DNA from: an uncultured delta proteobacterium
Lineage (GTDB): Bacteria > Desulfobacterota > Desulfobacteria > Desulfobacterales > JAHEIW01
Assembly: GCA_963706575.1 (NCBI GenBank)
Contig: CAVPNL010000006.1
Coordinates: forward strand, 576,001-640,000
Direction of reading: 5' to 3'
Length of the DNA stretch: 64,000 nt
The notes under the pieces were generated by a model. It was given only the letters and a program-made list of their open reading frames with translations. It did no database searches and had not been told where the DNA came from. Shown here in pieces: positions 3,219 through 21,804 of the stretch. The number at the start of each line of letters is the position of its first letter. Positions within the stretch are counted from its first letter, which is position 1. The translations under genes and the position numbers were made by a program.

Positions 3219-3311
3219 TGGCGGAGAGACAGGGATTCGAACCCTGGATGGAAGTTTCCCCCCATACTCGCTTAGCAGGCGAGTGCCTTCAGCCAGCTCG
3301 GCCATCTCTCC
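3219..3311 (-). tRNA. tRNA-Ser(GCT)
   Basis: Minus strand GGAGAGATGGCCGAGCTGG...CTCGC-CTGCTAA-GCGAG, long variable arm, GGTTCGAATCC, ends CCA. Confidence 0.95.
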
Positions 3312-3361
3312 AAAAAAATTTTCTCAAAATTTTTTTATATAAAATTGCGAAGCAATTTTAT

Positions 3362-3449
3362 TGGCGGAGGGAGTAGGATTCGAACCCACGGAGGTGTTAC
3401 CCTCAACGGTTTTCAAGACCGCCGCTTTCGACCACTCAGCCATCCCTCC
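3362..3449 (-). tRNA. tRNA-Ser(TGA)
   Basis: Minus strand GGAGGGATGGCTGAGTGG...GCGGT-CTTGAAA-ACCGT, long variable arm, GGTTCGAATCC, ends CCA. Confidence 0.95.
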
Positions 3450-4138: not shown

Positions 4139-4603
4139 GCCTGATTTTTATGTCGCACCCGGATCCCTCATAAGATACAGATTTCTATATAAATTATTCA
4201 AAAAACAACCAAACTTGCAGGTTTTGCATTCCGGTCAACCGGATTTAATCCCACCTCAATTCAAGACCCGGATAAGCAAGAGTCAATCCCTGACTCAAGG
4301 CTGACCGATTTATCGATAAAATCATTCTTTTTCGTTGACTTATCCTGAAACTTGTCTTAAAAAAAAATCTTATTCAGTTTTTTAAGTCGTGACTATTTTA
4401 TTGATGATTTTCCAAGATCCACCACAACTTATTTATAATTTAGGCGTTTCGGGTTTTGTAAACGCAGCAGGCCTTCTTAGTCGTGCCAACGATGGAAATA
4501 GCCAGCTAAATCGGTCGGTCGAAATCTCTGCGCAAAGCCCTGTTTGTTCCAGCTAGAGGAGGCAACTGAATTTTTTTTTAATCGCATCAAGGAGGAGGTG
4601 CAA

Positions 4604-5545
4604 ATGGAAACGGAAAAGGCATTTTATGAGAGGTTAGAGAGCAAAGGCGTCTCCCGAAGGGACTTCATGAAATACTGTACGTTCCTGACGGCGGCTATGG
4701 GGCTCTCGTCATCGTTTGTGCCAAAGGTGGCCGAAGTCTTTGCGGCACCGGCACAGCGCCCGCCGGTGATATGGCTGCATTTGGCAGAATGCACCGGTTG
4801 TTCCGAGGCTGTTCTCAGGTCCCAGTACCCCTATATCGACGATTTGATTCTTGAGGTTCTTTCTCTGGAATATCATGAGACGGTTATGGCGGCTGCGGGT
4901 CAGCAGGCTGAAGATCAACTTCAGATGGCACTGAAAAAGTACGCGGGCAAGTTCATCTGCGTGGTTGAAGGTGCCATTGCCACCAAATTCGACGGCGGAT
5001 ACGGTAAAATCGGCGGCCGGACATTTTTAGACATTGCCAAAGACGTAATTCCCAAAGCTGCCGGTGTGATCTGCATCGGATCCTGCTCCAGCTTTGGCAA
5101 TATCCAGGCGGCGAAACCCAACCCCGGCGGATACAAGGGGGTTGGTGAGGTGCTGGGAATCAAGACCGTAAACATCGCCGGATGTCCACCCAATCCGGTC
5201 AATTTTGTCGGTACGGTAGTCAGTTATCTGCTGCTCGGCAAACTTCCCGCCCTGGATGATCTGGGTCGTCCGTTGTTTGGTTACGGGAAATCCATCCATG
5301 ATCAGTGTCCGCGACGGTCTCATTTTGAAAACGAGGAATTTGTGGAGCAATTCGGTTCCGAGGAAGCCGCAATGGGCTATTGCCTTTACAAAATGGGCTG
5401 TAGAGGTCCGGAGACATACAACAACTGCCCGGTGGCCAAATTCAATGACGGCACCAGCTGGCCGGTTGAGGCGGGTGCTCCCTGCATCGGCTGCAGCGAG
5501 CCGAAATTTTGGGATAACTTCACGCCGTTTTATGAGGAACTCTAG
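4604..5545 (+). CDS. Periplasmic [NiFe] hydrogenase small subunit (Tat-exported, group 1b-like)
   Basis: GGAGGAGG RBS and ATG 4604; Tat motif SRRDFMK; ECTGCSE, GSC, GCPP, HDQC, CLYKMGC, WP..AGAPCIGC (Pro at the medial cluster position); no C-terminal membrane anchor. Confidence 0.95.
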   Translation: METEKAFYERLESKGVSRRDFMKYCTFLTAAMGLSSSFVPKVAEVFAAPAQRPPVIWLHLAECTGCSEAVLRSQYPYIDDLILEVLSLEYHETVMAAAGQQAEDQLQMALKKYAGKFICVVEGAIATKFDGGYGKIGGRTFLDIAKDVIPKAAGVICIGSCSSFGNIQAAKPNPGGYKGVGEVLGIKTVNIAGCPPNPVNFVGTVVSYLLLGKLPALDDLGRPLFGYGKSIHDQCPRRSHFENEEFVEQFGSEEAAMGYCLYKMGCRGPETYNNCPVAKFNDGTSWPVEAGAPCIGCSEPKFWDNFTPFYEEL

Positions 5546-5583: not shown

Positions 5584-7233
5584 ATGGCACAGCGAATAAC
5601 GATAGATCCAATCACCAGAATTGAGGGCCACCTTCGAATCGAAGTCGAAGTGGCCGGCGGCAAGGTGGTCAATGCCTGGAGTTCAGGTCAGATGTTCCGG
5701 GGTATTGAGCTCATCCTGCAGGGTAGAGATCCGCGGGATGCCCACCATTTTGTGCAGCGCTCCTGCGGCGTCTGAACGTACACACATGCTCTGTCCTCGG
5801 TGAGGGCAGTCGATAATGCCGTAAAGGTTAAAATACCGAAAAATGCACGCATCATTCGAAACCTTCTGATGGGCGCTCAGTTCCAGCATGATCATATTGT
5901 ACACTTTTATCATCTGCATGCTTTGGACTGGGTGGATATTGTCAGCGCCCTTTCGGCCGATCCCAAGAAAACCGCCGCGCTGGCTGACAATGTCAGCAAT
6001 GCGCCCTGGGGAGGGGCCGCTTATTTTAAAGGTGTTCAAGAACGGATTAAAACTTTTGTCGATAGTGGTCAGCTGGGACCCTTTTCCAATGCGTATTGGG
6101 GTCATCCTGCATACAAACTGCCGCCCGAAGCCAACCTGATGGCCACCGCACACTATGTTGAGGCCATTCGTCTTCAGGCTCGAACCGCACGACTGCATGC
6201 CATTTTCGGCGGCAAGAATCCGCACCCGCAGTCACTGGTGGTCGGTGGTGTGACCTGCGTCAGAGATCTGAGGCCGGATCGCATCGCTGAATTTTTGTAC
6301 ATCACCAAAGAAACCCAGGAATTTATTAAAAATGTCTATATTCCGGATCTGCTGGCGGTTGCTTCCTTTTACAAGGACTGGGGCGCCATCGGTGGCACCA
6401 GCAACTTTCTGGCATGGGGTGAATTCCCCGAATCCGACAACGAGCCCGACAGCCTCTTTATGCCCAGAGGCGTCATCATGCAACGCAATCTCGCTGGCGT
6501 AAAGATGGCCAATCAGGCACGGGTTTCTGAAGATGTTACCCGGGGATGGTATAAGGACGGCCCGGCCAGGCATCCTTACGAGGGTGAAACCAAACCGTTG
6601 CAGGAAAACCCCCAATACAAACCGGGGGACGGCAAATATACCTGGTTTAAGGCCCCGCGTTATGACGGCGAGCCCTGCGAGGTCGGCCCGCTGACACGCG
6701 TTCTGGTCGCCTATGCCAATGGGCACAAAGAAATTAAGCCTGTTGTTGACAATGTGCTTAAAACGCTGGGCGTAGATGCCAACGCGCTGTTCTCGACCCT
6801 TGGGCGCACGGCCGCCAGAGGAATTGAAACCCTGGTCATCGGTGAACGGGTACAGACCTGGCTCATGGAACTGGTCGAAAACATCAAAAGCGGCGATACC
6901 AAAACTTATGAACCCTATGAAATGCCCGACAGCGGGATGGGGGTTGGCTTAAACGACGTTCCCAGGGGCTCCCTGGGGCACTGGGTCCAAATTGAAAATA
7001 AGAAAATTAAAAACTACCAGTACGTCGTGCCGTCAACCTGGAACCTGTGCCCGCGGGATGCCAAAGGCAAAATGGGTCCGGTGGAAGAAGCCCTTATCGG
7101 CACACCGGTAGCGGATCCCAAAAAACCGCTTGAGGTCCTGCGAACGGTTCATTCATTTGATCCCTGTATTGCCTGTGGGGTCCACGTCATCGATCCGGAC
7201 TCCAACGAGGTTTACAAGATCAAAGCGATTTAA
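5584..7233 (+). CDS. [NiFe] hydrogenase large subunit with in-frame TGA (putative Sec64) in the N-terminal RSCGV(U) motif
   Basis: ORFs 5584..5775 and 5800..7233 share one frame; read-through gives 549 aa (DPITRIEGH...QRSCGV*TYTHAL...PRG.LGH...[11 protein letters not shown] plus a 15-aa cleavable tail). Confidence 0.92.
5791..5809 (+). promoter_or_regulatory. Putative bacterial SECIS element
   Basis: CTGTCCTC-GGT-GAGGGCAG: 8-bp stem with one G-U pair and a G-starting apical loop, beginning 16 nt after the TGA at 5773-5775. Confidence 0.7.
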
Positions 7234-7257: not shown

Positions 7258-7292
7258 AAACGGCCTCCCGAATCTGCGGGAGGCCGTTTTTT
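7258..7292 (+). terminator. Intrinsic terminator after the hydrogenase structural genes
   Basis: AAACGGCCTCCCG-AATCTG-CGGGAGGCCGTTTTTT. Confidence 0.85.
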
Positions 7293-7424
7293 ATGGTGTT
7301 GACGGTTCGTCCTGTTCTAGTGTAATACGCATACTCAGGATAAAAATATTCAATCGGCATTTGCAGGGGCGGGCTTTACGCCCGCTCTTTCATTAGCGGC
7401 TTAAATTCTAAAAATAGGTTAAAA

Positions 7425-7946
7425 TTGTCTGATAACAGTTCTTTTGACGATATCTATTCTACGGAAATTATGATTCTGGGGGTGGGCTGCATCCTTTTTT
7501 CGGATGAGGGCTTCGGTGTGCGTGTAATCGAAACCATTCAGGAGCGCTACAAATTTCCGGATAATGTTCTGGTGGTCGATGGCGGTGTTCTGGGTGTCAA
7601 TCTGCTGGGTGTCATTTCCAAACCGGACCACCTGATTGTGGTAGATGCCATTCGCAATAAAGGCAAGCCCGGGGATCTGTATCGTCTGTCAGGAGAAGCA
7701 ATCCCGGAGCGCATTCGGGCTAAAAATTCACTGCATCAAGTTGATTTTTTAGAAGCGCTGACCTTATGTCAGGCCCTTGATAAGGTGCCAGAAACGGTTA
7801 TTCTGGGTATAGAACCCGAAGATATAGAGACGCTGAGTACTGAATTGACACCCACCACTCAGTCGAAAGTCGATGCCGTTATCGAGATGGTGCTGGGTGA
7901 GATAAAGCGTTTGGGCGGGTCCTATCAGGAAAAAACGAGTGCATGA
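7425..7946 (+). CDS. Hydrogenase maturation endopeptidase (HyaD/HybD/HupD family)
   Basis: ILGVGCILFSDEGFGV, VVDGG, IVVDA and SLHQ motifs; start uncertain (TTG 7425 or ATG 7470). Confidence 0.92.
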   Translation: MSDNSSFDDIYSTEIMILGVGCILFSDEGFGVRVIETIQERYKFPDNVLVVDGGVLGVNLLGVISKPDHLIVVDAIRNKGKPGDLYRLSGEAIPERIRAKNSLHQVDFLEALTLCQALDKVPETVILGIEPEDIETLSTELTPTTQSKVDAVIEMVLGEIKRLGGSYQEKTSA

Positions 7947-8016: not shown

Positions 8017-10989
8017 ATGCCGACTCGACCTTCAAAACCGTCATCTTTCCGTTCAGCCTTGGAATGGATTCTATCGAAACCATGGATGAGCATCGCATTT
8101 TTTGTAGTGATATCTCTCTTGTTTGCTCTACAAATTCCCAAGCTTTCTTTTCGAACCTCTATTTATGACTTGCTGATCGAAAATCTTCCCGAAACCATCC
8201 GTTATCAAAAGGCAAAAAAAGTTTTTGGATCCGATGATATTATTCAAGTCGTGGTTAAGGCGGATTCTATTTTTGACACCGCCACTTTCAAAAAAATCGG
8301 GGTTCTTTCTGAAGCTTTCGGCAAAATCCAGGGCGTCAGAAGGGTCATCAGTCTGCCCGGTATCCGGCAAAAAGTCGATCCGGGTGGAAACTGGGCCATC
8401 GATCGTTTCGCCAAAGTGATATCGCCGGTCGACCTGTTTAAAAAAAATCTGATATCAGCGGACCAAAAAATGAGTGCCATTACACTGTTTCTGGAAAGTG
8501 AAGCAGTACATGAAAGCGTTATCGAGAAGATCAATGACATCATTGACAAAGATTCCGGCACCCTTTCTCTTTACCAGATCGGCATGCCGCTGGTTTCACA
8601 GGCGCTAGCTAAATACACCATTAAAGACTTTCAAACCCTTCCCATTTTTACACTGATCCTAATTACCCTGACCCTTTTTGTTCTGTTTCGCAGGCCAAGC
8701 CACGTCCTGCTGGTGTTGATGGTTGTGGCCACAGTGCTAATATGGACATTTGGGCTCATGGCGTTGGTGCAAGTGCCTTTGTCTGTTTTAACCATGATTG
8801 TTCCGGTGTTCCTGATCGCTGTTGGAACGGCTTATTGCCTGCATGTTATGTCTGAATACATTTCCAATGCAGGACTTGCCGGAACTAAAAGGGAAGCAGT
8901 TATTGCAACCTTTGCGAATTCAGCATTGCCTTGCACGCTGGCGGTTGTGACCACCCTGTTCGGAGTCGGGTCGCTTTTTGTCAACCGCATCCGTGCGATC
9001 CATGAATTTGCGCTGTTTACTTGTTTCGGGCTGGGCAGTTTGCTGCTTGTGATTCTTTTGCTTCTGCCTGCCGTGCTGGTTTTGATCCCTCTGCCGCCTC
9101 AAAAGGAGCAACGTGTTTCCGGCTTTGGCCGATTGCTGGATCGCATCCTTGATATGATTATCGACATCGGTTTGAAGCACCAAAAAGCTGCTTTCCTTTC
9201 GATCGGGATTTTGTCTCTGCTGGCAGCGGCTGGCATATTCTTCATCCAGGTCGAGACCAATCCCTTCGAATATTTCAAAAAAGATATACCGATCAGACAA
9301 AATTTCGACGACAGCTATCAGAAACTTTCAGGTAGTTTTGCTATCAGTGTGGTAATGGAAAGCCGGCTGGATTACTATTTTGAGAATCCGCAGCATATCT
9401 CTGAAATTAAGCGCTTTCAGGAATATCTGGAAACCCTTGACGGTGTGGATAAAACCGTTTCTTTTGCCGATTATGTGATGCTTGTCCACTACGCCTTAAG
9501 CAAATACGATTCAAAATATTACGTGATCCCCCAAGAAGCTTATGAAACACGCATGGCGATTAATAACTATAAGGGTCTGCTGGGGGAAGATATGTATTCT
9601 CCGTTTATGACGCCGGAGCTCAACAAGGCCAACATCCTTGTGCTGACGCATATCTCGAGTTCGAAAGATCTGCTCAAAATCAAAGATCAAATCCTTTTCC
9701 ACGCGCAACAACACCTACCCGAACACCTCGCGGTTGAAGTTACCGGATTTGCTGTGGCAATTTCTGCCAGCAGTCATTTGCTTGTTGCAGGCCAGACGAA
9801 AAGTATTTTGCTGGGTCTAATCCTCATTTTCAGCATTATGTTTTTAATGTTTCTGTCGGGGAAAGTCGGCCTGATCGCCTTAGTCCCCAACTGTTTTCCG
9901 ATTATCATGAACTTTGGAATTATGGGGTGGATGGGCATTCCTCTTTCAACGTCCACCAGCCTGATCGCCAGTATTGCCATCGGGCTGGCGGTTGATGACA
10001 CCATCCATTATCTACACCGCTATAACACTGAATTTAAGAAAGATTTGGATAAAGACCGGGCACTGCGTGCTGCCGTAAAAAGTGTCGGAAAGCCGATCAT
10101 TTTTACCACGCTGGCCATCAGTATCGGCTTTTTTGTTTTAATGCTTTCTCATTTCCAACCGACGGCGATTTTTGGTTTTCTGATGGTTATCACCCTGCTG
10201 GCTGCGCTTATTGGTGATCTGATCCTTTTGCCGGCACTCATGCTTCACGTTGAACTGGTAACGGCATGGGATCTTCTCAAATTAATGCCGACGATGGGAG
10301 GCATTTCAACCGGTGTTGCCCATGAGTTGAACCAGCCCCTGAACGCCATCAAAATGGGCAGTGACTTTTTAAAGATGATGATTGCTCAGAAGGCAAAAAT
10401 TGAGCAAGCGCATCTGATTCAGGTGGCCAATGAAATCGGCAATCAGGTTGATCGGGCATCGGACATCGTCAACCGGCTGCAGGCATTTGGACAACGGTCT
10501 GATTTTGCCCGACAAACTGTAAATATCAATGATCCAATCAAGGATGTCATGGACATTGTCGGGCATCAGTTGAGCTTAGACAATATCGAGATTAAACTGG
10601 ATTTAGAAGAGAACCTGCCCGCTATCATCGGCCATCCAAACCGATTGGGACAAGTGGTCTACAATCTTGTCTCCAATGCCCATGAAGCCATCAACGAAAA
10701 GAAGAAAATTGGCGCAGATGCCGGTCAGGCTGTGATTCGGATCAGATCCTTTTCAGAAGGCGACCGGGTGATACTGGCAGTATCGGATACCGGAATCGGC
10801 ATTTCAGCCGTCGACATCGGACGGGTTTACGAACCGTTTTTCTCAACGAAGCCAAGCGGTCAGGGAAAAGGACTGGGGCTGAGCATCAGCAATCAGATCG
10901 TGAGGGATTTCAATGGCCGCATCGATATTGAAAGCAAGGAACACCAGGGGGCGACCTTTAAAGTGACCTTTCCCCGCGCCAGGTCCTGA
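8017..10989 (+). CDS. MMPL/RND-family membrane protein fused to a histidine kinase (HisKA + HATPase)
   Basis: Two MMPL-type halves (IAVGTAYCLH; IAIGLAVDDTIHY), then H-box GVAHELNQPL, N-box QVVYNLVSNA, DTGIGI, FFSTK, GKGLGL. Confidence 0.88.
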   Translation: MPTRPSKPSSFRSALEWILSKPWMSIAFFVVISLLFALQIPKLSFRTSIYDLLIENLPETIRYQKAKKVFGSDDIIQVVVKADSIFDTATFKKIGVLSEAFGKIQGVRRVISLPGIRQKVDPGGNWAIDRFAKVISPVDLFKKNLISADQKMSAITLFLESEAVHESVIEKINDIIDKDSGTLSLYQIGMPLVSQALAKYTIKDFQTLPIFTLILITLTLFVLFRRPSHVLLVLMVVATVLIWTFGLMALVQVPLSVLTMIVPVFLIAVGTAYCLHVMSEYISNAGLAGTKREAVIATFANSALPCTLAVVTTLFGVGSLFVNRIRAIHEFALFTCFGLGSLLLVILLLLPAVLVLIPLPPQKEQRVSGFGRLLDRILDMIIDIGLKHQKAAFLSIGILSLLAAAGIFFIQVETNPFEYFKKDIPIRQNFDDSYQKLSGSFAISVVMESRLDYYFENPQHISEIKRFQEYLETLDGVDKTVSFADYVMLVHYALSKYDSKYYVIPQEAYETRMAINNYKGLLGEDMYSPFMTPELNKANILVLTHISSSKDLLKIKDQILFHAQQHLPEHLAVEVTGFAVAISASSHLLVAGQTKSILLGLILIFSIMFLMFLSGKVGLIALVPNCFPIIMNFGIMGWMGIPLSTSTSLIASIAIGLAVDDTIHYLHRYNTEFKKDLDKDRALRAAVKSVGKPIIFTTLAISIGFFVLMLSHFQPTAIFGFLMVITLLAALIGDLILLPALMLHVELVTAWDLLKLMPTMGGISTGVAHELNQPLNAIKMGSDFLKMMIAQKAKIEQAHLIQVANEIGNQVDRASDIVNRLQAFGQRSDFARQTVNINDPIKDVMDIVGHQLSLDNIEIKLDLEENLPAIIGHPNRLGQVVYNLVSNAHEAINEKKKIGADAGQAVIRIRSFSEGDRVILAVSDTGIGISAVDIGRVYEPFFSTKPSGQGKGLGLSISNQIVRDFNGRIDIESKEHQGATFKVTFPRARS

Positions 10990-11194
10990 AAACAAAAGAT
11001 GCTTGCGCGCCCGCTTGATTGTTGTTCGACATTATCGCTTCCCTTGCGTTTTCAAGTATGCTATTTTGTGGTATTTTCTAAAAAATCCCCATCACCTTTC
11101 AACCGGCGTTCTGGTGGTCGGAGCGGGCAACGAACTCCTGAAAATCGTTTATTGGCGATCAGCTATGAGTTAAGGTATAAAGGAGACAACGCCA

Positions 11195-12133
11195 ATGTCA
11201 TTAAAATTATTATGGATTCAATGCGGCGGTTGTGGCGGCGACACCTGGTCGTTTTTCAATGCGGAATCTCCCAACGTTACTGAACTGTTTCGTTCACTTG
11301 ATGTTGAACTGCTGTGGCATCCTTCGATTTCAATCCGCAGCCCCGATTATCTAAAAACCATCAGTGAGGAATTGCTGTCAGGCGCCCTGGAGCTAGATGT
11401 CCTGTGCGTCGAAGGGTCCATCCTTCGGGGACCCGGTGGAACCGGCCGCTATGACGAGATCCACGGAAAACCTAAAAAAGATCTTGTGGCTTCATTAGCA
11501 AATCATGCCAGGTATATTTTAGCCATCGGCACCTGTGCCAGCTACGGCGGCATCGGGGCCAATACCGAAATAGAAGCAACCGGGATGCAATTTCTCAGAG
11601 AAGAAAAAGGGGGATTTCTGGGTGAAGATTTCACCTCCCGAAGCGGGATGCCGGTTATTAATTTGCCCGGGTGCCCCTGCCATTGCGATATTGTTGCCGG
11701 GACGCTGGTCGCGATTGGTTCCGGAGCGCAGCTCGAGCTGGATGAATACAACACCCCCGTGGAATGGTACGGAATGATGGTACACCAGGGATGCACCCGT
11801 AACGAGTACCATGAGTACCGTGTGGAAGAGCGGAAATTTGGCGAAAAAGGATGCATGTTTTTTCATTTGGGCTGTCACGGTCCCCTGGTTCGCGGGCCGT
11901 GTAACAAGATGCTGTGGAACAACCGTTCATCAAAGACAAGGGTAGGTGTTCCCTGTTTTGGCTGTACGCGGCCCGACTTTCCGCAACAGTATCCGTTTTT
12001 TCAAACCAGAAATATCGAGGGGATCCCCATAGAGTTGCCCGAAGGGATCAGCCGGGCGCATTACATGGCCTATAAAGGTATGGCCGCGGCAGCCGCGCCC
12101 AAACGGTTAAAAACGAGAAAGACGGGTATCTAA
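11195..12133 (+). CDS. Cytoplasmic sensory [NiFe] hydrogenase small subunit (HupU/HoxB-like)
   Basis: No Tat signal; CGGCGGD, GTCAS, PGCPCH, HQGC, GCMFFHLGC, PCFGC; C-terminal GIPIELPEG...AAAPKRL extension resembling HupU/HoxB. Confidence 0.88.
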   Translation: MSLKLLWIQCGGCGGDTWSFFNAESPNVTELFRSLDVELLWHPSISIRSPDYLKTISEELLSGALELDVLCVEGSILRGPGGTGRYDEIHGKPKKDLVASLANHARYILAIGTCASYGGIGANTEIEATGMQFLREEKGGFLGEDFTSRSGMPVINLPGCPCHCDIVAGTLVAIGSGAQLELDEYNTPVEWYGMMVHQGCTRNEYHEYRVEERKFGEKGCMFFHLGCHGPLVRGPCNKMLWNNRSSKTRVGVPCFGCTRPDFPQQYPFFQTRNIEGIPIELPEGISRAHYMAYKGMAAAAAPKRLKTRKTGI

Positions 12134-12184
12134 CCTGACAGGGTCTTGATCACTACTGTTGAAATATTTGCATCGGTCATCCAA

Positions 12185-13696
12185 ATGAAACCAAAAAAAA
12201 TAAATATTTTACCCGTAAATCGAGTCGAAGGCGATCTTGAAGTCCGGATCGAAATTGAAAAAAACAGGGTATCCGACGCCTGGAGTGCCGGTATTATGTA
12301 CCGAGGCTTTGAGAATTTGCTCATCGGCCGCGCTGTTTTGGATGGCCTGGTTCTGACTCCCCGCATATGCGGCATCTGTAGTACCTCTCATTTGAAAGCC
12401 GCAGCCAAAGCATTGGATATGTTTTTCAGGGTAAAAATACCGGATAATGCTGTACGCATTCGAAATATTACCTTGATTGCTGAAAAGATCCAAAATGATA
12501 TCCGCCACGCATTTATGCTGTTCATGACGGATTTTACAAATCCGGCCTATCAAAAGCATCCTTTATTTGATGATGCCGCGCGGCGTTATCAACCATTGAC
12601 CGGTGAGACCACGGTCGCAACCGTCCGGGAAACCAAAAGAATTCTTGAAATTATCGCCATTTTAGGCGGTCAATGGCCGCATTCATCTTTTATGGTGCCG
12701 GGTGGTGTGGTGTGTGTGCCCAGTACCAATGATCTGGCGCAATGTTTGTTTTTGATACGGAATTTTCGAAAGTGGTTCGAAAACAGCGTTCTGGGATGTC
12801 TCATTGAACGCTGGATGGAAGTCAAATCCAAGGCCGATTTGGATGTCTGGCTGGAGGAAGCCGAATCTCACACACACGGCGAGCTCGGGTTTTATATCCG
12901 GTTTGCGAAAGAAGCCGGTTTGAAAAAGATTGGCAGGGGCTGTGGAAATTTTATTAGTTTTGGCTCACTGGATTTACCAAATGACACCGGCGTTAAACGG
13001 GCAGGGAAAAACCGGCAGTTTCTGCCGTCGGGGTTTTTTCATCAGCTTGAGCTTAAAGCGTTTGATCAGAAAAAAATATCGGAAGATGTCTCACATTCAT
13101 GGTTTGATGCCGGCGAGGGCGGCAAACATCCATTTGACGGTGAAACCCGACCCTATGCCAGCGGTAAAGAGAGTGGAAAATATTCCTGGGCCAAAGCGCC
13201 GCGCTATGATGCCATGCCGGCTGAAACCGGCCCCCTCGCGGAAATGGTTGTTGCTTCCAATCCGTTGATTATTGATTTCATCAGGCAGGATGGCCCGAGC
13301 GTGTTCCTAAGAGAGCTAGCGCGTTTGATAAGGCCGGCTTATTTGATACCGCTTATGGAGCAATGGCTTGAAGAAACGATCCGCTGTCATGAAGAATTTT
13401 ATCAGGATCATCGCAAAAAGGAAAATGGAGAGGGTTACGGCTTGGTGGAAGCCCCCCGGGGCGCATTGGGCCACTGGGTGAAGATTAAGGACGCCAAAAT
13501 TCAAAAATATCAAATTATTACTCCGACTGCCTGGAATGCCTCACCGCGTGATGCGAACGGTTTTAGAGGACCCTGTGAAGAAGCCATTGTTGGAACTGAA
13601 ATCAAGGATCTGGACAATCCGATAGAAGTCGATCATATCATCCGGTCTTTTGATCCGTGTCTGGTATGCACGGTTCACACCATTGATGCAACATAG
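12185..13696 (+). CDS. Sensory [NiFe] hydrogenase large subunit (HupV/HoxC-like)
   Basis: VNRVEGDL, L1 TPRICGICSTSH, L2 SFDPCLVCTVH followed by only 5 residues; ATG 12185 in frame with ORF 12146. Confidence 0.9.
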   Translation: MKPKKINILPVNRVEGDLEVRIEIEKNRVSDAWSAGIMYRGFENLLIGRAVLDGLVLTPRICGICSTSHLKAAAKALDMFFRVKIPDNAVRIRNITLIAEKIQNDIRHAFMLFMTDFTNPAYQKHPLFDDAARRYQPLTGETTVATVRETKRILEIIAILGGQWPHSSFMVPGGVVCVPSTNDLAQCLFLIRNFRKWFENSVLGCLIERWMEVKSKADLDVWLEEAESHTHGELGFYIRFAKEAGLKKIGRGCGNFISFGSLDLPNDTGVKRAGKNRQFLPSGFFHQLELKAFDQKKISEDVSHSWFDAGEGGKHPFDGETRPYASGKESGKYSWAKAPRYDAMPAETGPLAEMVVASNPLIIDFIRQDGPSVFLRELARLIRPAYLIPLMEQWLEETIRCHEEFYQDHRKKENGEGYGLVEAPRGALGHWVKIKDAKIQKYQIITPTAWNASPRDANGFRGPCEEAIVGTEIKDLDNPIEVDHIIRSFDPCLVCTVHTIDAT

Positions 13697-13761
13697 TAAA
13701 AACGTCCTGCTTTCTCTGGCAGTTTATTTTAGGTTTCAGGTTTCAGTCTCCGGGTTCAAAA

Positions 13762-13815
13762 GTAGGGCCGGCCACCGTGCCAGCCTCAAGCGGCGGCCTC
13801 GGTAGGTCGCCCTAC
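13762..13815. repeat. GTAG-type REP-like inverted repeat element, copy 1
   Basis: GTAGGGCCGGCCACCGTGCC...GGTCGCCCTAC; similar copy at 20586-20640. Confidence 0.7.
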
Positions 13816-13982
13816 TCGGAAGAATATTAGGCATAAGGCAGAAGGAAGAAGTCAGAAAACAAAAAACAGAAAGTAGCCTGCCTTTTATCGTCTGTCATCT
13901 GTTTGCTGTGCTTTGTCCGCTGTATCTTCCCGACATCTGGAATGATGCCTGACGGATTGTTTATTAACCCCCCAGCGCGTGA

Positions 13983-16073
13983 GTGAATACCATGGAAACT
14001 TTATCTCAGCCCTCCCGGGCGGCTCCAAGTGCCGACAGCACCTACTGGGCATTGGTCGAGGAAAACGCGATCTTAAGAGAAGAAATACAGGTTGCCCGTA
14101 AAGCTGCAGAGCTGACCGCCAACCTTGTTGTCAAACAATTCGAGGAGACCGAAAAGGTTCTTCACCGTTTCCAGGTCGCCAATGCGCAAAGAAAAGCCGT
14201 ACTTGATTCCGCAACCCGAATTTCGATAATTGCCACCAACAAAGATGGTGTCATTACGGTTTTTAACACGGGTGCGGAACACATGTTGGGTTACAGTGCC
14301 CAGGAAATCATCGGCCAACAGACACCGGAACTTTTTCACTTACAAGCTGAATTGGAGAACGTCCGCGATCGCTTGAGCTTTAAATACGGCCGTCGGGTGA
14401 CCGGACTCGATGTTTTTTTTGAATATGTGGCGCAAAAACGATTGGCCCCCAGTGAATGGACGTATGTTAGAAAAGATAGCACTCAATTTCCGGTCAGGAT
14501 GACAATTAACGTCCTGCGAGAACCGTATGGAGACATCAGCGGCCTACTGTTCATCGCCATGGATATTGCTGAAATAAAGCGTTCGGAAAAAGCGCTGAAA
14601 GAAAGTGAGCGCAAATACCGGCTGTTGGTCAGGAACCTGCCAAACTGTGTCTACAAGGGTTACATAGATGGCACCATTGATTTTTTTGATAATAAAATTG
14701 AGCAAATTACAGGGTACAGCAAAGAAGAGTTTTTATCCAGAAAGGTAAACTGGTTTAATCTCGTTGACCCGGATGATCTGGAGCACACCAAGGAGCAGTT
14801 CAAACAGGCCTTACTCACTGACAGCTCTTACATCAGGGAATATCGCGTTAAGTCAAAAACCGGTGATACGATCTGGATTCAGGACGGTGGGCAAATCATT
14901 TATGGGGAAAACGGGGAGGTTGAATTTATCACCGGCGCATTTCTGGATATCACCGAACGCAAGCTCGCCGAAAAAGCGCTGCATGAATCCGAGGAAAAAT
15001 ATCGATCCCTGTTTAACAGCGGCCCTATCCCGATCTTTGTTTTGGAGCGCGAAACTTTAGAAATTTTAGATGCCAACCCGATGGCTGAGGATACCTATGG
15101 CTATTCCAATGGTGAATTAACCGGTATGCCTTTTTCAGCTCTCGGTCCGGTCGACGAGATCTATGAAAGCATCTCTGCTTTTGACAATATGGATTGGCCC
15201 AGAGCCTGCGTTGTGAGTTCGAGGGTTCGCCATTATCAGAAAGGGAATACCCCGTTTTACGTCAGGGTTACGGCCTGTCCGACGCGCTACAAAGATAGAG
15301 ATGCAATCATCCTTGCAACCACAGACATCACCGAAATGTTGGAAAAAGAGGCGCAACTGCTGCAGGCCAGTAAAATGACGACGCTGGGTGAAATGTCGGC
15401 CGGGATTGCCCATGAATTGAATCAGCCGTTAAATGCGATTAATATGGGAAGCGAATATCTCAAAATGATGATCGAAAACCGAAAAAAGATACCCGAGGAA
15501 AACCTGGTTGAAGTCTCCGATCAAATCAGTGAACAGGTGGACAGGGCTTCTGAAATCATTGTTCGCCTCAGGGAATTTGGGCACAAATCCGACTTTGCCA
15601 AAGAAAAGGTCAACATCAACAAATCGGTACGGGTTGCTTACGGTATTATCAATCAACAGATTCGCCTTCAAAATATTGACCTTATCCTGGATCTTGAGAA
15701 GAATTTGCCGCCGATTATGGCGCGCAATACCCGCATTGAACAAGTCATCTTTAACTTGCTCACCAATGCCATGGATGCGTTAACTCAGAGAAAAAAAGCG
15801 AGATCGGAGGGGGCTAAACCAGCCATTACCATTCGTTCGTTTCTTGAAAATGATCGGGTGAAGCTGGCCGTTTCAGACAATGGCAGCGGCATACCGAAGG
15901 CTGTTTTAGAAAAGGTATTTGAGCCGTTTTTTACCACCAAGGAAGTGGGCAGCGGCATGGGGCTCGGGCTTTCGATCACTTACGGGATTGTCAAAGATTA
16001 TAACGGCGAAATAGATATTCAAAGTGAAGAAGGAAAGGGTACGACGGTTAGGTTAACTTTCCCTTGCGCCTGA
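13983..16073 (+). CDS. Cytoplasmic triple-PAS histidine kinase (HoxJ/HupT-like role)
   Basis: Three PAS/PAC repeats, H-box AGIAHELNQPL, N-box, DNGSGI, FFTTK, GMGLGL; no TM segments; directly downstream of the sensory hydrogenase. Confidence 0.92.
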   Translation: MNTMETLSQPSRAAPSADSTYWALVEENAILREEIQVARKAAELTANLVVKQFEETEKVLHRFQVANAQRKAVLDSATRISIIATNKDGVITVFNTGAEHMLGYSAQEIIGQQTPELFHLQAELENVRDRLSFKYGRRVTGLDVFFEYVAQKRLAPSEWTYVRKDSTQFPVRMTINVLREPYGDISGLLFIAMDIAEIKRSEKALKESERKYRLLVRNLPNCVYKGYIDGTIDFFDNKIEQITGYSKEEFLSRKVNWFNLVDPDDLEHTKEQFKQALLTDSSYIREYRVKSKTGDTIWIQDGGQIIYGENGEVEFITGAFLDITERKLAEKALHESEEKYRSLFNSGPIPIFVLERETLEILDANPMAEDTYGYSNGELTGMPFSALGPVDEIYESISAFDNMDWPRACVVSSRVRHYQKGNTPFYVRVTACPTRYKDRDAIILATTDITEMLEKEAQLLQASKMTTLGEMSAGIAHELNQPLNAINMGSEYLKMMIENRKKIPEENLVEVSDQISEQVDRASEIIVRLREFGHKSDFAKEKVNINKSVRVAYGIINQQIRLQNIDLILDLEKNLPPIMARNTRIEQVIFNLLTNAMDALTQRKKARSEGAKPAITIRSFLENDRVKLAVSDNGSGIPKAVLEKVFEPFFTTKEVGSGMGLGLSITYGIVKDYNGEIDIQSEEGKGTTVRLTFPCA

Positions 16074-16095
16074 TGCGCATTGAAAGGAAGGATAC

Positions 16096-16461
16096 GTGGA
16101 GAAAATCCTGGTTATCGATGACGAAAAGGCGACCCTGTCTATGTTTCGTCTTTTTTTGGATGCATATGGCTACAGCGTTTATACGGCGGAAAACGGCACT
16201 GAAGGACTTGAAATTTTTCGCAAAGAAAAACCGGCGATCGTACTGACCGACGTAAAAATGCCAGGTATAGATGGACTGGCCGTGCTGAAGCAGATAAAAC
16301 AGATCGCTCCCCATACAGCGGTAATTGTCATCACCGGTCATGGTGATACCGATCTGGCCGAGCAGGCGGTGGAACTGGATGCTGTTGATTTTATTAGTAA
16401 ACCGATCAAAAAAGAAGCCCTGGACGCGGCGCTTGAAAAAGCAAGAAAGAAGTTGGGATGA
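16096..16461 (+). CDS. Single-domain response regulator (receiver only)
   Basis: ILVIDD, LTDVKMPGIDG, ITGHG, KP motifs; 121 aa; RBS GGAAGGA. Confidence 0.92.
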   Translation: MEKILVIDDEKATLSMFRLFLDAYGYSVYTAENGTEGLEIFRKEKPAIVLTDVKMPGIDGLAVLKQIKQIAPHTAVIVITGHGDTDLAEQAVELDAVDFISKPIKKEALDAALEKARKKLG

Positions 16462-17000: not shown

Positions 17001-19280
17001 ATGCCGAATAACCATGCAGCCAAAAAAATTGAAGTCAACGGCATTGTCCAGGGAGTCGGTTTTCGACCCTTTGTTTACAATCTTGCCAATCAGTATGGCT
17101 TAAAAGGCGAGGTGGCCAATACCGCTGCCGGGGTATCGATTCATATCGAAGGACCGCCGGAGTGCATCCGGGGCTTTGAAACAGACCTGACCGCAAAATG
17201 CCCGCCGCTGGCCCATGTGGTCGAAATAGCCGGTCGATCCGAACCGATAAAGCCCTATGCGGATTTCAGGATTGCGAAAAGCAGGGGCCAGGCCCAAATG
17301 TCCACCCTGATCTCACCGGATGTTTCAATTTGTGATGACTGCCTGCGGGAGCTTTTCGATCCCGCTGATCGGCGCTATCTGTATCCGTTTATTAATTGCA
17401 CCAACTGCGGACCGCGCTACACCATCATTGATGACATCCCCTATGACCGGCCCAAAACCTCCATGCGGCATTTTAAGATGTGCGCGGCCTGCCAGTCGGA
17501 ATACGATGACCCCACCAACCGGCGCTTTCATGCCCAGCCGAATGCCTGTGCCGAATGCGGACCGCATGTCCGCCTTTATTCAAATCGCCGGCAACCGATT
17601 GATACTGATAATCCCGTTAAAAATGCGGCCGATCTCATCCGCCGGGGGCAGATTGTTGCTGTCAAAGGGCTTGGCGGATATCACCTGGTGGCTGATGCCG
17701 AAAACAGCGAAGCGGTCATCCGGCTTCGCAACCGTAAGATGCGCGAAGAAAAGCCCTTTGCCATCATGTCCGCCGATCTGGAACGTATTCGAAAATATGC
17801 CCGGGTGCGGCCCGCGGAAGAGAATTTACTGACCTCTATGCAGCGCCCGATTGTATTGCTGCATAAAAAGACAGGCGGCTCCATTTCAGAAGCGGTGGCA
17901 CCCCGCAATAAATACTGGGGTGTAATGTTGCCTTATACGCCGCTGCACTACCTGCTTTTAAATCATGGGTTTGCCGCTCTCGTCATGACCAGCGCGAATC
18001 TGACTGACGAACCCATCGCCATTGATAATGAAGATGCCTTTGAACGCCTCGCCGATATTGCCGATTATTTTTTAGTTCACAACCGCGACATCTATTTGCG
18101 CAGTGATGATTCCATTGTCAGACATAGCGCAGATCATACACGCTATATTCGACGCTCACGGGGGTTTGTGCCGATCCCGCTGTTTTTAAAACGTGCGGTT
18201 CCACCGATTCTTGCCTGCGGCGCCGAGTTGAAAAATACGATCTGCATTACCAAAGATGACAAGGCCTTTTTGAGCCAGCATATCGGGGATCTTGAAAACA
18301 AAATCACGCTGGATTTTTTTCAGCTGACGGTGGACCATTTGCAGCGCATTCTCGAGATTCGGCCTGAAATAATCGCCTGTGATATGCATCCGGACTATCT
18401 GAGCACGCGCTTCGCCAGAGAACAGACAAAAACCCGCCTTATCGAAGTCCAGCACCACCATGCCCACATCGTTAGCTGTATGGCCGAACACCAGCTGGAA
18501 GGCGCGGTCATCGGTCTGTCATTTGACGGCACCGGCTACGGCAGCGACGGCGCCATCTGGGGGGGTGAAGTGCTGGTGGCCGAGGCCAAACAATTTGAAA
18601 GAGTCGCGCATCTGGCATATGTGCCCATGCCGGGCAGCGCCGCTGCCATAAAGGAGCCCTGGCGGATGGCGATCAGTTATCTGTATGATGCCTTCGGCGA
18701 CGCTTTTGGGGATCTGGGTCTTCCGGTCTTAAAACAAAATGATTCGCAAAAATTAAAAATCATGGTGGAAATGATTCAAAAGGGCATCAATTGCCCGCCG
18801 ACCTCGAGCCTGGGGCGCCTGTTTGATGGTGTGGCCGCCATCATCGGTATCCGCAACCAGGTGAATTTCGAAGGACAGGCGGCCATGGAATTGGAAATGC
18901 TGGCAGCGGGTGATACGGATTCAATTTATGACTTTGAATGGCTAACGGGAGATGGCATCCGGATTTTACCGGCACCCATTATTCGCGGCGTTGTACAGGA
19001 TGTTCAAAACGGGCTGTCAATTGCGCAAATCGGCATTAGATTTCACAAAACCCTGATAGCCCTTTTCAGCGAGATATGCGTGGCCGTTGGCCGGGACCAC
19101 GATTTGAATCGAGTCGTGTTAAGCGGGGGATGTTTTCAAAATTCCATCCTGTTAAGCGGCATGATCCATAAGCTGGCATCCCGTGATTTTGAGGTATTCG
19201 CTCACCGGCGGGTTCCCACCAATGACGGGGGCATATCACTTGGGCAAGCCCTCATTGCTGCAGCTATTGCGGAGCAATAG
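17001..19280 (+). CDS. hypF: Carbamoyltransferase HypF
   Basis: GIVQGVGFRP acylphosphatase domain, Zn-finger CxxC pairs, KGLGGYHL, QHHHAH, NDGGISLGQ. Confidence 0.97.
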   Translation: MPNNHAAKKIEVNGIVQGVGFRPFVYNLANQYGLKGEVANTAAGVSIHIEGPPECIRGFETDLTAKCPPLAHVVEIAGRSEPIKPYADFRIAKSRGQAQMSTLISPDVSICDDCLRELFDPADRRYLYPFINCTNCGPRYTIIDDIPYDRPKTSMRHFKMCAACQSEYDDPTNRRFHAQPNACAECGPHVRLYSNRRQPIDTDNPVKNAADLIRRGQIVAVKGLGGYHLVADAENSEAVIRLRNRKMREEKPFAIMSADLERIRKYARVRPAEENLLTSMQRPIVLLHKKTGGSISEAVAPRNKYWGVMLPYTPLHYLLLNHGFAALVMTSANLTDEPIAIDNEDAFERLADIADYFLVHNRDIYLRSDDSIVRHSADHTRYIRRSRGFVPIPLFLKRAVPPILACGAELKNTICITKDDKAFLSQHIGDLENKITLDFFQLTVDHLQRILEIRPEIIACDMHPDYLSTRFAREQTKTRLIEVQHHHAHIVSCMAEHQLEGAVIGLSFDGTGYGSDGAIWGGEVLVAEAKQFERVAHLAYVPMPGSAAAIKEPWRMAISYLYDAFGDAFGDLGLPVLKQNDSQKLKIMVEMIQKGINCPPTSSLGRLFDGVAAIIGIRNQVNFEGQAAMELEMLAAGDTDSIYDFEWLTGDGIRILPAPIIRGVVQDVQNGLSIAQIGIRFHKTLIALFSEICVAVGRDHDLNRVVLSGGCFQNSILLSGMIHKLASRDFEVFAHRRVPTNDGGISLGQALIAAAIAEQ

Positions 19281-19392: not shown

Positions 19393-20484
19393 ATGACCCT
19401 AAAACACATCGATGAGTACCGAGATTCGGAGATATCTAAACAATTAATCGAAAAGATCAAATCCACCAGCAAAAAGGATCTCCGTTTGATGGAAGTTTGC
19501 GGTACGCATACGGTTTCCATTTTTAGAAGCGGGATCCGTTCGGTGTTGCCGCAGACCATTTCACTGCTTTCCGGACCGGGCTGCCCGGTGTGCGTGACCG
19601 ACCAGGCCGAGGTTGACGCCTTTATTGAGCTTGCGCGCATCGATGATGTGATTATTGCGACTTTTGGCGACTTAATGCGCGTGCCCGGCACCAAGTCTTC
19701 TCTGCAAAAGGAAAGTGCCGCAGGCCGGGATATCCGGGTGGTTTACTCAACTTTTGACGCCCTTGAAATCGCCAAGAAAAATCCCGCTAAAAAGGTCGTA
19801 TTTCTCGGTATCGGGTTTGAGACCACCGCTCCCACCATAGCGGCCGCCATTTTATCGGCCGCCCAGATGGACCTAAACAATTTTTCGGTGATTTCCGCTC
19901 ATAAATTGGTCCCCCCGGCGTTGCAGGCGCTGATGGCGTCGGAGGACGTCAGGATTGACGGCTTTATCTTGCCCGGCCATGTTTCAGTAATCATTGGATT
20001 GAACGCTTACCGGCCTTTTTTTGATCAACATCAAATCCCCTGTGTCGTTGCGGGGTTTGAGCCCATCGACATTTTGCAGGCCATATCCATGCTGGTTGAA
20101 ATGCTGGAATCCGGCAGCCCGGCCCTGGACAATGCCTATCCAAGAGCAGTGACACCCGAGGGGAATACCAAGGCGCAGCAAATCCTGGATGAGATTTTTG
20201 AACCGGCCGATGCCTGCTGGCGGGGCATCGGTGTGATTCCGCAAAGCGGCTTAAAGATTCGTGAAAAATATGCCGCCCATGACGCCCAAAAATTATTTGA
20301 TGTTCAGGTACCGGATGCCAAAACGCCGCAAGGCTGTGCCTGCGGTGAAATTCTCATCGGCACCAAAACACCACCGCAGTGCGCGCTATACAAAAAAGCC
20401 TGCACACCGATGGACCCGGTGGGGCCCTGCATGGTCTCAACCGAGGGAACGTGTGCGGCGTATTATAAGTATCACAGCGATTGA
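19393..20484 (+). CDS. hypD: Hydrogenase maturation protein HypD
   Basis: MEVCGTHT, GPGCPVC, GFETT, PGHVS, CMVSTEGTC. Confidence 0.97.
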   Translation: MTLKHIDEYRDSEISKQLIEKIKSTSKKDLRLMEVCGTHTVSIFRSGIRSVLPQTISLLSGPGCPVCVTDQAEVDAFIELARIDDVIIATFGDLMRVPGTKSSLQKESAAGRDIRVVYSTFDALEIAKKNPAKKVVFLGIGFETTAPTIAAAILSAAQMDLNNFSVISAHKLVPPALQALMASEDVRIDGFILPGHVSVIIGLNAYRPFFDQHQIPCVVAGFEPIDILQAISMLVEMLESGSPALDNAYPRAVTPEGNTKAQQILDEIFEPADACWRGIGVIPQSGLKIREKYAAHDAQKLFDVQVPDAKTPQGCACGEILIGTKTPPQCALYKKACTPMDPVGPCMVSTEGTCAAYYKYHSD

Positions 20485-20735: not shown

Positions 20736-21752
20736 ATGACAACAGATAAAATTTTACTGGATCACGGCAGCGGCGGCAAGATCTCCCATAGCCTCACCAA
20801 AGACATGATGCTGCCGGTATTTGATAACGACATACTGGCGGCGCTCAATGATGGGGCCATCTTTGAGCTGGCGGGCAGGCGGCTTGCTTTTTCAACCGAT
20901 TCATACACGGTGGATCCCATTTTTTTCCCGGGCGGAAATATCGGTGACCTGGCGATCAACGGAACGGTTAATGATATTGCCATGTGCGGGGCCATTCCGC
21001 TATATTTGAGCGTCGGACTCATTATTGAAGAAGGCCTGTCCATGACGGATCTTGAAACCATTATCAACGATATGGGCCGGGCTGCCGAAGCTGCGGGAGT
21101 TACTGTCGTTACCGGGGATACCAAGGTGGTCCCCAGAGGAACTGCCGACCGGATTTTTATCAATACCTCAGGGATCGGTTTGATTCCGCAAGACGTGCAT
21201 GTGGCCAGCGACAATGCCAGAGCCGGCGATAAAATTATTTTAAGTGGAACCATTGCCGATCACGGGATTACGATATTAACCCAGCGTGAAGGGCTTTCCT
21301 TTGAGACATCGCTGCAGAGCGATTCGGCACCCTTGAACCACATGATCAAAAAGATGTTTGCGGCCACTGCTGCCGGAGACATTCATGTTTTACGGGATCC
21401 GACCCGCGGTGGTGTCGGCACGGCGCTAAATGAGATCGCTGAAAAATCTGAAATCGGTATCGAGATCATTGAAGATAAAATTCCGCTAAAGGACGAGGTG
21501 GCGGGAGCCTGTGAATTGCTGGGGTTTGATCCCCTTTATCTGGCGAATGAAGGCAAGCTCCTGGCATTTGTGTCGCCCGATTGTACCGCTGCGGTTTTGA
21601 AAGCAATCCAATCCGACCCTTACGGCAAGGATGCCGCGGTTATCGGCCAGGTGGTAGATGATTCTCCCGGCAAGGTCTTTTTGAAAACACGCATCGGCGG
21701 CAAACGGATTGTGGATATGTTGGCGGGCGAGCAGCTCCCTCGAATCTGCTAA
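20736..21752 (+). CDS. hypE: Carbamoyl dehydratase HypE
   Basis: HGSGG, TDSYTVDPIFFPGG, RDPTRGG, C-terminal LPRIC. Confidence 0.97.
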   Translation: MTTDKILLDHGSGGKISHSLTKDMMLPVFDNDILAALNDGAIFELAGRRLAFSTDSYTVDPIFFPGGNIGDLAINGTVNDIAMCGAIPLYLSVGLIIEEGLSMTDLETIINDMGRAAEAAGVTVVTGDTKVVPRGTADRIFINTSGIGLIPQDVHVASDNARAGDKIILSGTIADHGITILTQREGLSFETSLQSDSAPLNHMIKKMFAATAAGDIHVLRDPTRGGVGTALNEIAEKSEIGIEIIEDKIPLKDEVAGACELLGFDPLYLANEGKLLAFVSPDCTAAVLKAIQSDPYGKDAAVIGQVVDDSPGKVFLKTRIGGKRIVDMLAGEQLPRIC

Positions 21753-21804
21753 AAGCAGCATAGCGCAAAGGGCATAGCGCATAGCGTCATGCGGTGTGAA
21801 CGCG

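Follow-up and report, generated by a model that had tools for sequence, protein, structure and literature searches.

In the canonical [NiFeSe] hydrogenases, selenocysteine (Sec; U in motif notation) replaces the first cysteine of the C-terminal motif of the large subunit and acts as a terminal ligand of nickel (Takano et al. 2026, PMC13582414; Evans et al. 2021, PMC8020662; statements taken from these and the other papers cited refer to the portions of their text that were available). A different position has also appeared in print. Takano et al. 2026 (Front Microbiol, PMC13582414) credit Baltazar et al. 2011 (Eur J Inorg Chem) with reporting an N-terminal CXXU motif in two sequences of Group 1 and one of Group 3, and they describe the second N-terminal ligand of this motif as bridging Ni and Fe. 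In a systematic replacement of each ligand of the Escherichia coli hydrogenase Hyd-1 by Sec, the C79U variant retained more of the native H2 oxidation (13%) than the other three, with a lower Michaelis constant (KM) for H2 and an O2 response like that of the native enzyme, and the canonical terminal Sec position was concluded to be special (Evans et al. 2021, PMC8020662). Here we analyzed a 64,000-nucleotide stretch of DNA from an uncultured member of the Desulfobacterales (contig CAVPNL010000006.1 of assembly GCA_963706575.1; the whole stretch is called the window), which encodes the large subunit of a [NiFe] hydrogenase with a single in-frame UGA at the codon of this second N-terminal ligand, most probably a genuine Sec codon.

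Our literature search returned no study of a natural bridging-Sec Group 1 enzyme and no account of its distribution in Group 1, and the available portions of the D. autotrophicum HRM2 genome paper and of a 2016 gas-cavity paper mention HysAB and nothing on an N-terminal Sec. An earlier note on this DNA, made from the letters alone, had presented the enzyme as one without a characterized example. This holds for natural enzymes, but the variant itself was not unknown, since Group 1 CXXU sequences are credited to Baltazar et al. 2011 in the available text of Takano et al. and Evans et al. As far as our searches show, this kind of hydrogenase has been noted in print yet remains uncharacterized, and its breadth in the Desulfobacterales is not described in the literature.

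The large-subunit frame begins with an ATG, with a GGGAGG ribosome-binding site 8 bases before it, ends with a TAA and is interrupted by exactly one internal stop, the TGA of codon 64 within the sequence QRSCGV*TYTH (coordinates are collected in Table 1). When this codon is read through, the protein matches PF00374 with an expectation value (E) of 1.5e-221 over profile positions 1–508 of 508, and scores 579.9 bits against NF033181, slightly below the cut-off of 600. Residues 5–547 align with the large subunit of Desulfovibrio vulgaris Miyazaki F (1h2a_L; E 4e-218), where Cys61 corresponds to residue 81 and codon 64 to residue 84, a Cys, both within RxCGxC, and where Cys528 and Cys531 correspond to residues 546 and 549 of the DPCxxC motif. 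The second N-terminal Cys bridges Ni and Fe in Desulfovibrio structures. The four-Cys ligand set of RxCGxCxxxH and DPCxxCxxH is incomplete in our protein, being made up of Cys61, Cys528, Cys531 and the UGA at position 64, with the motif geometry otherwise intact, and it is unlikely that a TGA would hit one of the four ligand codons among 549 by chance. The earlier note had placed the TGA at the second Cys of the N-terminal (L1) motif and had described the C-terminal Cys pair as intact, in agreement with the open reading frame (ORF) and the alignment. The C-terminal motif, DPCIACGVH, is followed by 15 more residues. The mature chain 4u9h_L stops at residue 533, equivalent to His534 of our protein, and since crystallized mature chains end at this histidine, the last 15 residues represent the usual cleavable tail, which would be removed by the maturation protease.

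The database proteins that are 88–95% identical to the large subunit are calls of 470–477 amino acids beginning downstream of the TGA, and the full-length database matches (546–551 amino acids) are 76–83% identical. The short calls confirm that gene callers truncate this gene, as had been anticipated in the earlier note. Near-identical DNA covering the gene is present in Logan contigs from estuary and marine-sediment metagenome runs, and a 147-nt contig from an RNA library (X15) covers positions 5668–5813 across codon 64 with one difference, the position of which along the contig is unspecified, lending weak support, and this to transcription only. These are assembled contigs and not raw reads; they are uninformative on expression level and strand, and stretches left uncovered in the RNA runs carry no meaning.

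To compare the codon among relatives, 192 places were fetched, comprising loci from searches of the family, the order and a wider range together with 120 regions, mostly at 70% identity or above, picked from the matches listed; the set of relatives is drawn from those matches, and a further 51 and 37 matches lie outside it. Large subunits were obtained from 191 of the 192 places, 101 of them with CxxU, 3 with UxxU, 86 with CxxC and 1 without its N-terminus. At the equivalent of codon 64, TGA is present in 104 of the 190 genes with a readable motif and TGC or TGT in the other 86, which answers the comparison of TGA with TGY codons that the earlier note had proposed. The C-terminal motif is CxxC in all 188 readable homologues. 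Within the same family code, an orthologue with one TGA occurs in 18 of 25 genomes, that of the window (G000) included, at 86–100% identity. Of 301 genomes sampled evenly from the order, 189 gave a match at E ≤ 1e-100, and the TGA form, carried by 82 of these, is spread over 32 family codes. Among 77 loci from a separate scan of named records, 63 were CxxU and 13 CxxC; no cultured carrier of the TGA form was found among these 77 named relatives, the sole named isolate, Desulfosarcina cetonica JCM 12296, being of the Cys type. The three UxxU relatives (L079, L201 and L202, from genomes G570, G391 and G470) have TGA at both N-terminal ligand codons and a single downstream hairpin. One further relative (L077, genome G540) has a second in-frame TGA, at residue 172, in place of the conserved Trp of AYWGHP; this one-off could be an error, damage or a UGA read as Trp, and it does look like error or damage.

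The UGA is followed by a hairpin resembling a bacterial Sec insertion sequence (SECIS) element. The loop, GGU, has G at its first position, in line with the bacterial SECIS rule of a G at either of the first two apical-loop positions (Takano et al. 2026, PMC13582414). Of the 104 Sec-type genes, 75 share an identical 19-mer, 12 more differ by a change from C-G to U-G at the base of the stem, and 5 have the loop GGC. Over 84 distinct sequences, 99.4% of the stem cells are paired. Third-position entropy at the hairpin codons, +6 to +11, is 0.00–0.14 bits in 97 Sec-type genes, compared with 1.42–1.95 bits in 53 Cys-type genes of at least 70% identity, in which the encoded residues (L, S, S, V, R, A) are mostly unchanged, and the codons flanking the hairpin on both sides vary equally in the two sets. 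The minimum free energy of the hairpin is −11.1 ± 0.9 kcal/mol in Sec-type genes and −7.3 ± 3.2 kcal/mol in Cys-type genes. In a distant Sec clade (53–55% identity; family codes f126 and f101), this place is taken by another hairpin, of 6 bp, in which A-U in one member corresponds to U-A in another. Rfam at gathering thresholds gives no match at the hairpin, its sole matches in the window being two tRNA-Ser genes. Folded as a whole, the 68-nt segment is no more stable than shuffled sequences (z −0.32), and the local hairpin alone stands out. On the other side of the UGA, the preceding Val codon (5770–5772) is almost always GTC in Sec-type genes, with an entropy of 0.29 bits compared with 1.74 bits in Cys-type genes, which suggests a context requirement for recoding.

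The genome of the window encodes all four components of the Sec machinery, selA, selB, selC and selD, for which the earlier note had suggested a check. The matches to selA and selB score 604.8 and 376.5 bits, and selD is present twice, both copies containing an in-frame TGA (C5:349796-350719 and C3:438965-439886, the C3 copy appearing as two adjacent matches). The single tRNA-Sec (75.2 bits), with an acceptor stem of 8 bp and a long variable arm, is the sole tRNA with a UCA anticodon called by ARAGORN. Across the order sample, selA is found in 287 of 301 genomes and in 77 of the 82 Sec-type genomes; its near-universal presence means that it neither supports nor refutes a Sec reading. ARAGORN also called a tRNA-Pyl with anticodon CUA in the same genome (C15:118432-118505), and the organism may also use pyrrolysine.

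Judged by sequence, the enzyme is otherwise of the standard periplasmic uptake [NiFe] type and distinct from the canonical [NiFeSe] type, as the earlier note had maintained. The large subunit scores 423.2 bits against the NCBIfam HysA model NF045518 (cut-off 780), the small subunit 254.9 bits against the NiFeSe small-subunit model NF045520 (cut-off 470) and the protease 102.4 bits against the NiFeSe protease model (cut-off 190), all far below their cut-offs. The longest ORF of the small subunit starts at TTG 4544, with a probable start at ATG 4604 (METEKAF...) upstream of the twin-arginine signal SRRDFMK; the protein contains the motif GCPPNP, and no C-terminal membrane anchor was found in the product of 4544–5545. 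With the cleavable tail of the large subunit and the adjoining protease, these features match the description of the flanking genes as standard [NiFe] partners. The assembly comprises 5.67 Mb in 25 contigs and is 92% complete with 6% contamination. Its other matches to Ni-hydrogenase large subunits are a sensor-like cytoplasmic enzyme within the window and two distant cytoplasmic-type proteins on contig C5, and neither a Cys-type group 1 paralogue nor HysA was found in this 92%-complete assembly, so that the Sec gene is the only candidate periplasmic [NiFe] hydrogenase found there.

The Sec and Cys forms are closely interleaved. On a FastTree phylogeny of 187 large subunits, the CxxU state changed at least 15 times, and 12 of these changes are forced by well-supported branches. 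The clade that holds the gene of the window has 117 rows (91 CxxU, 25 CxxC and 1 UxxU), both forms are present in nine family codes, and Sec forms extend beyond the order, with CxxU in f120, f126 and f159 and UxxU in f101, f126 and f157. The independent evolution proposed in the earlier note holds relative to the canonical C-terminal Sec enzymes; it does not hold in the sense of a one-off, for the clade of this gene is large and old. Where Cys genes are nested within Sec clades, they match the hairpin at a mean of 12.7 of 19 positions, compared with 12.1 of 19 in other Cys genes, and some non-nested genes reach 17–18 of 19. The nested genes keep no more of the hairpin than the others, and gain and loss of Sec are therefore not distinguishable. 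Second-sphere co-adaptation was considered for the top-ranking protein columns (463 S/A, 67 T/V, 355, 532 G/A and 43) and was dropped, all of them being non-significant over 11 independent contrasts.

The best explanation, to which we assign a probability of about 0.87, is that the UGA is a genuine Sec codon and that Sec64 bridges Ni and Fe in a periplasmic-type, HynAB-like [NiFe] hydrogenase. The codon, the hairpin with its selective constraint, the Sec machinery, the alignment to a ligand Cys and the wide conservation are observed, and the hairpin, the machinery and the conservation across many genomes support the claim of a real Sec codon made in the earlier note; the bridging role, also claimed there, agrees with homology to Desulfovibrio structures and with the published reading of the motif in the available text of Takano et al. 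(PMC13582414). On this reading, an uncultured member of the Desulfobacterales would export, through the Tat (twin-arginine translocation) system, a soluble periplasmic [NiFe] hydrogenase for H2 uptake, of the Desulfovibrio HynAB type, with our protein as its catalytic subunit. UGA 64 would be decoded as selenocysteine by SelB and Sec-tRNA(Sec) under the direction of the hairpin that lies 15 nt downstream, and the selenolate of Sec64 would replace the second N-terminal Cys as the Ni-Fe bridge, giving a mature site of the form Ni(mu-Se-Sec64)(mu-S-Cys531)Fe with Cys61 and Cys528 as terminal ligands. Incorporation of selenium, its contact with both metals and its effect on catalysis are what we infer from this arrangement. 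By analogy with Hyd-1 C79U, we expect an active enzyme with altered kinetics and without the marked O2 tolerance of the canonical terminal position.

Several points weigh against this explanation. Covariation in the stem is thin, as five of the eight pairs never vary and one pair shows a double change (U.G to G.U) in 2 of the 84 distinct sequences, so that the evidence relied on for the hairpin is the invariance of its synonymous sites. A hairpin close or identical to that of Sec-type genes is also present in some Cys-type genes, with 18 of 19 nt in L176 (f46) and a sequence in L206 identical to that of its Sec-type neighbor L203 (L203/L204, f126); the hairpin alone is therefore not diagnostic, and those of L206 and L176 could be either remnants of reversion or pre-existing structures. 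Five of the 82 Sec-type genomes of the order, with completeness of 61–97%, have no selA match at E ≤ 1e-60, as do 14 of the 301 genomes overall. No protein column co-varies significantly with the Sec/Cys state (best p 0.125 over the 11 contrasts), indicating that no second-sphere adaptation is detected. Natural bridging substitutions are called "purported examples" by Evans et al. 2021 (PNAS, PMC8020662), UGA may be read as Cys where tRNA(ReC) exists (Takano et al. 2026, PMC13582414), and no protein-level evidence for any natural enzyme of this type was found in the literature.

In the strongest alternative, the UGA is recoded wholly or partly as Cys, either by a SelB-dependent tRNA(ReC)-type tRNA or by near-cognate reading under selenium limitation, giving a four-Cys enzyme at least some of the time. 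Takano et al. 2026 (PMC13582414) caution that N-terminal Sec motifs may be subject to such recoding, and the frequent interchange of Sec and Cys (at least 12 switches), together with the lack of any second-sphere residue that tracks the state, suggests that Cys is functionally tolerated. However, the one tRNA with a UCA anticodon called by ARAGORN is a tRNA-SeC of the usual architecture, although an unusual tRNA can escape detection and the assembly is 92% complete, and selA and two selD genes accompany it. For a Cys product, moreover, TGC or TGT would be the cheaper codon, whereas 104 genes retain TGA, and we regard recoding as Cys as improbable.

Considerably less likely still is that translation ends at the UGA, producing a 63-residue fragment with or without a separate 477-residue fragment initiated at GTG 5800, and hence a split or dead enzyme. 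Split large subunits occur in some methanogen hydrogenases, and databases hold many post-TGA calls of 470–477 amino acids. On the other hand, the GTG lies in the loop of the hairpin as a Val codon of the conserved frame, and no ribosome-binding site is seen before it. The 63 N-terminal codons are conserved in frame, including those of the essential Arg58 and Cys61, the truncated protein would be without two ligands, and the constraint on the hairpin is restricted to genes with the TGA. That the TGA arose by an error of sequencing or assembly, or by inactivating mutation in the recent past, as the draft state of the assembly (25 contigs, 6% contamination) and the damage-like second TGA of L077 might suggest, is effectively refuted, since the same TGA stands in about a hundred independently assembled genes (104, down to 53% identity) with frames intact on both sides, and contigs from other metagenome runs cover the gene, as the RNA-library contig with its single difference does for 5668–5813.

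The surroundings of the putative Sec hydrogenase are summarized in Table 1. The true start of the protease may lie a few codons 3' of TTG 7425. Directly after the large-subunit stop, a GC-rich inverted repeat followed by a T-run (7260–7295), read by eye, resembles an intrinsic terminator before the protease gene. The maturation genes hypF, hypD and hypE lie 10–14 kb downstream of the large subunit. Between the protease and hypF, a second, cytoplasmic hydrogenase pair occupies the region 8017–16461 together with its flanking genes. Its small subunit (11195–12133) is without a Tat signal, and its large subunit (12146–13696) carries the motifs RICGICSTSH and DPCLVCTVH and a tail of only 5 residues. 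The pair is flanked by a histidine kinase with an MMPL domain (8017–10989), a PAS histidine kinase (13983–16073) and a response regulator (16096–16461), and the whole looks like an H2-sensing regulatory hydrogenase system adjoining the uptake enzyme.

Table 1. Features of the hydrogenase locus and its surroundings, in positions of the window.
Feature	Position	Strand	Remarks
[NiFe] hydrogenase large subunit	5584..7233	+	549 codons including one UGA (Sec64) read through; ORF, PF00374, structure alignment
UGA codon 64, second ligand position of RxCGxC motif	5773..5775	+	read as selenocysteine (probable); TGA/Cys alternation in homologues
SECIS-like hairpin	5791..5809	+	8-bp stem (5791-5798 with 5802-5809), loop GGU 5799-5801; 15 nt after UGA; fold
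C-terminal extension, 15 residues after His534	7186..7230	+	presumed removed by protease; translation, alignment to mature crystallized chains
[NiFe] hydrogenase small subunit (HynA-like)	4544..5545	+	PF01058, PF14720; TIGR00391 402.6 bits, above cut-off
HyaD/HybD-family hydrogenase maturation endopeptidase	7425..7946	+	PF01750; TIGR00140 160.6 bits, above cut-off
hypF	17001-19280		maturation gene
hypD	19393-20484		maturation gene
hypE-like	20736-21752		maturation gene
ApbE flavin transferase gene	21796-22818		after hyp genes
Two tRNA-Ser genes (anticodons GCU, UGA)	3219-3449	-	Rfam; upstream of operon

Work on [NiFeSe] hydrogenases credits high activity and O2 resilience to selenium at one terminal nickel ligand, whereas in about a hundred genomes nature here keeps selenium, if the codon is read as we propose, at another position, a bridging one, with the recoding signal under clear selection. 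Tentatively, and with somewhat more doubt than belief, we suggest that a large part of the Desulfobacterales, which are dominant sulfate reducers of marine and estuarine sediments, usually takes up H2 in the periplasm with a selenolate-bridged Ni-Fe site, that this site arose at least twice with different SECIS hairpins, and that it confers a catalytic property which the sulfur bridge does not provide, for example a higher affinity for H2 at the very low levels of sediments. In that case it would constitute a second natural class of [NiFeSe] hydrogenase, with selenium at a position thought unimportant from work on model enzymes. The role of a bridging selenium can now be tested on a natural enzyme and on natural Sec/Cys pairs that are 78–80% identical to each other's clade. 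As gene callers truncate these proteins to 470–477 residues, metabolic surveys of sulfate reducers in sediments may list their hydrogenases as damaged or partial and count too few selenoproteins.

The closest structural relatives of the enzyme are the periplasmic [NiFe] hydrogenases of Desulfovibrio (D. vulgaris Miyazaki F, 1H2A/4U9H; D. gigas, 2FRV; D. fructosovorans, 1YQW), which we take to be HydDB group 1b. Alignment with them is full-length (E 4e-218 to 2e-203) with the Ni motifs in register, and the shared features include a C-terminal tail with its protease and a small subunit that is exported by Tat and has no membrane anchor. In contrast to these enzymes, where the second N-terminal ligand is Cys, the ligand here is encoded by UGA and is probably Sec, and the host belongs to the Desulfobacterales and not to the Desulfovibrionales. 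With the canonical [NiFeSe] HysAB enzymes of group 1a (Desulfomicrobium baculatum, 1CC1; D. vulgaris Hildenborough, 2WPN) it has in common a UGA-encoded, here predicted, Sec ligand of Ni, a place in periplasmic group 1 and an origin in sulfate reducers. It differs from them in its C-terminal CxxC motif, and only residues 177–546 align well with 1CC1 and 2WPN (E about 1e-94 to 1e-100). In engineered E. coli Hyd-1 C79U, likewise a group 1 enzyme, Sec occupies the equivalent ligand position; according to the available text (PMC8020662), C79U is artificial, made by a UAG/EF-Tu route in an O2-tolerant group 1d enzyme that has not evolved with selenium, and its Sec is not directed by a natural SECIS. 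The Group 1 and Group 3 CXXU sequences credited to Baltazar et al. 2011 share the N-terminal motif and the predicted bridging role; the Group 1 sequences are two only, presented as exceptions, and agree with ours in the motif as described. A further parallel is with the Group 4 [NiFeSe] hydrogenases with N-terminal CXXU, UXXC or UXXU motifs, in which the available text of Takano et al. (PMC13582414) describes N-terminal Sec, a downstream SECIS with a loop G, intermingled Sec and Cys forms, Cys relatives that have SECIS-like hairpins and UXXU forms with one hairpin, all of which recur in our set. Those enzymes are described there as membrane-bound, energy-converting, facing the cytoplasm and rare (about 0.2% of Group 4), whereas the enzyme described here is of the periplasmic uptake type and its apparent Sec form is common in its order.

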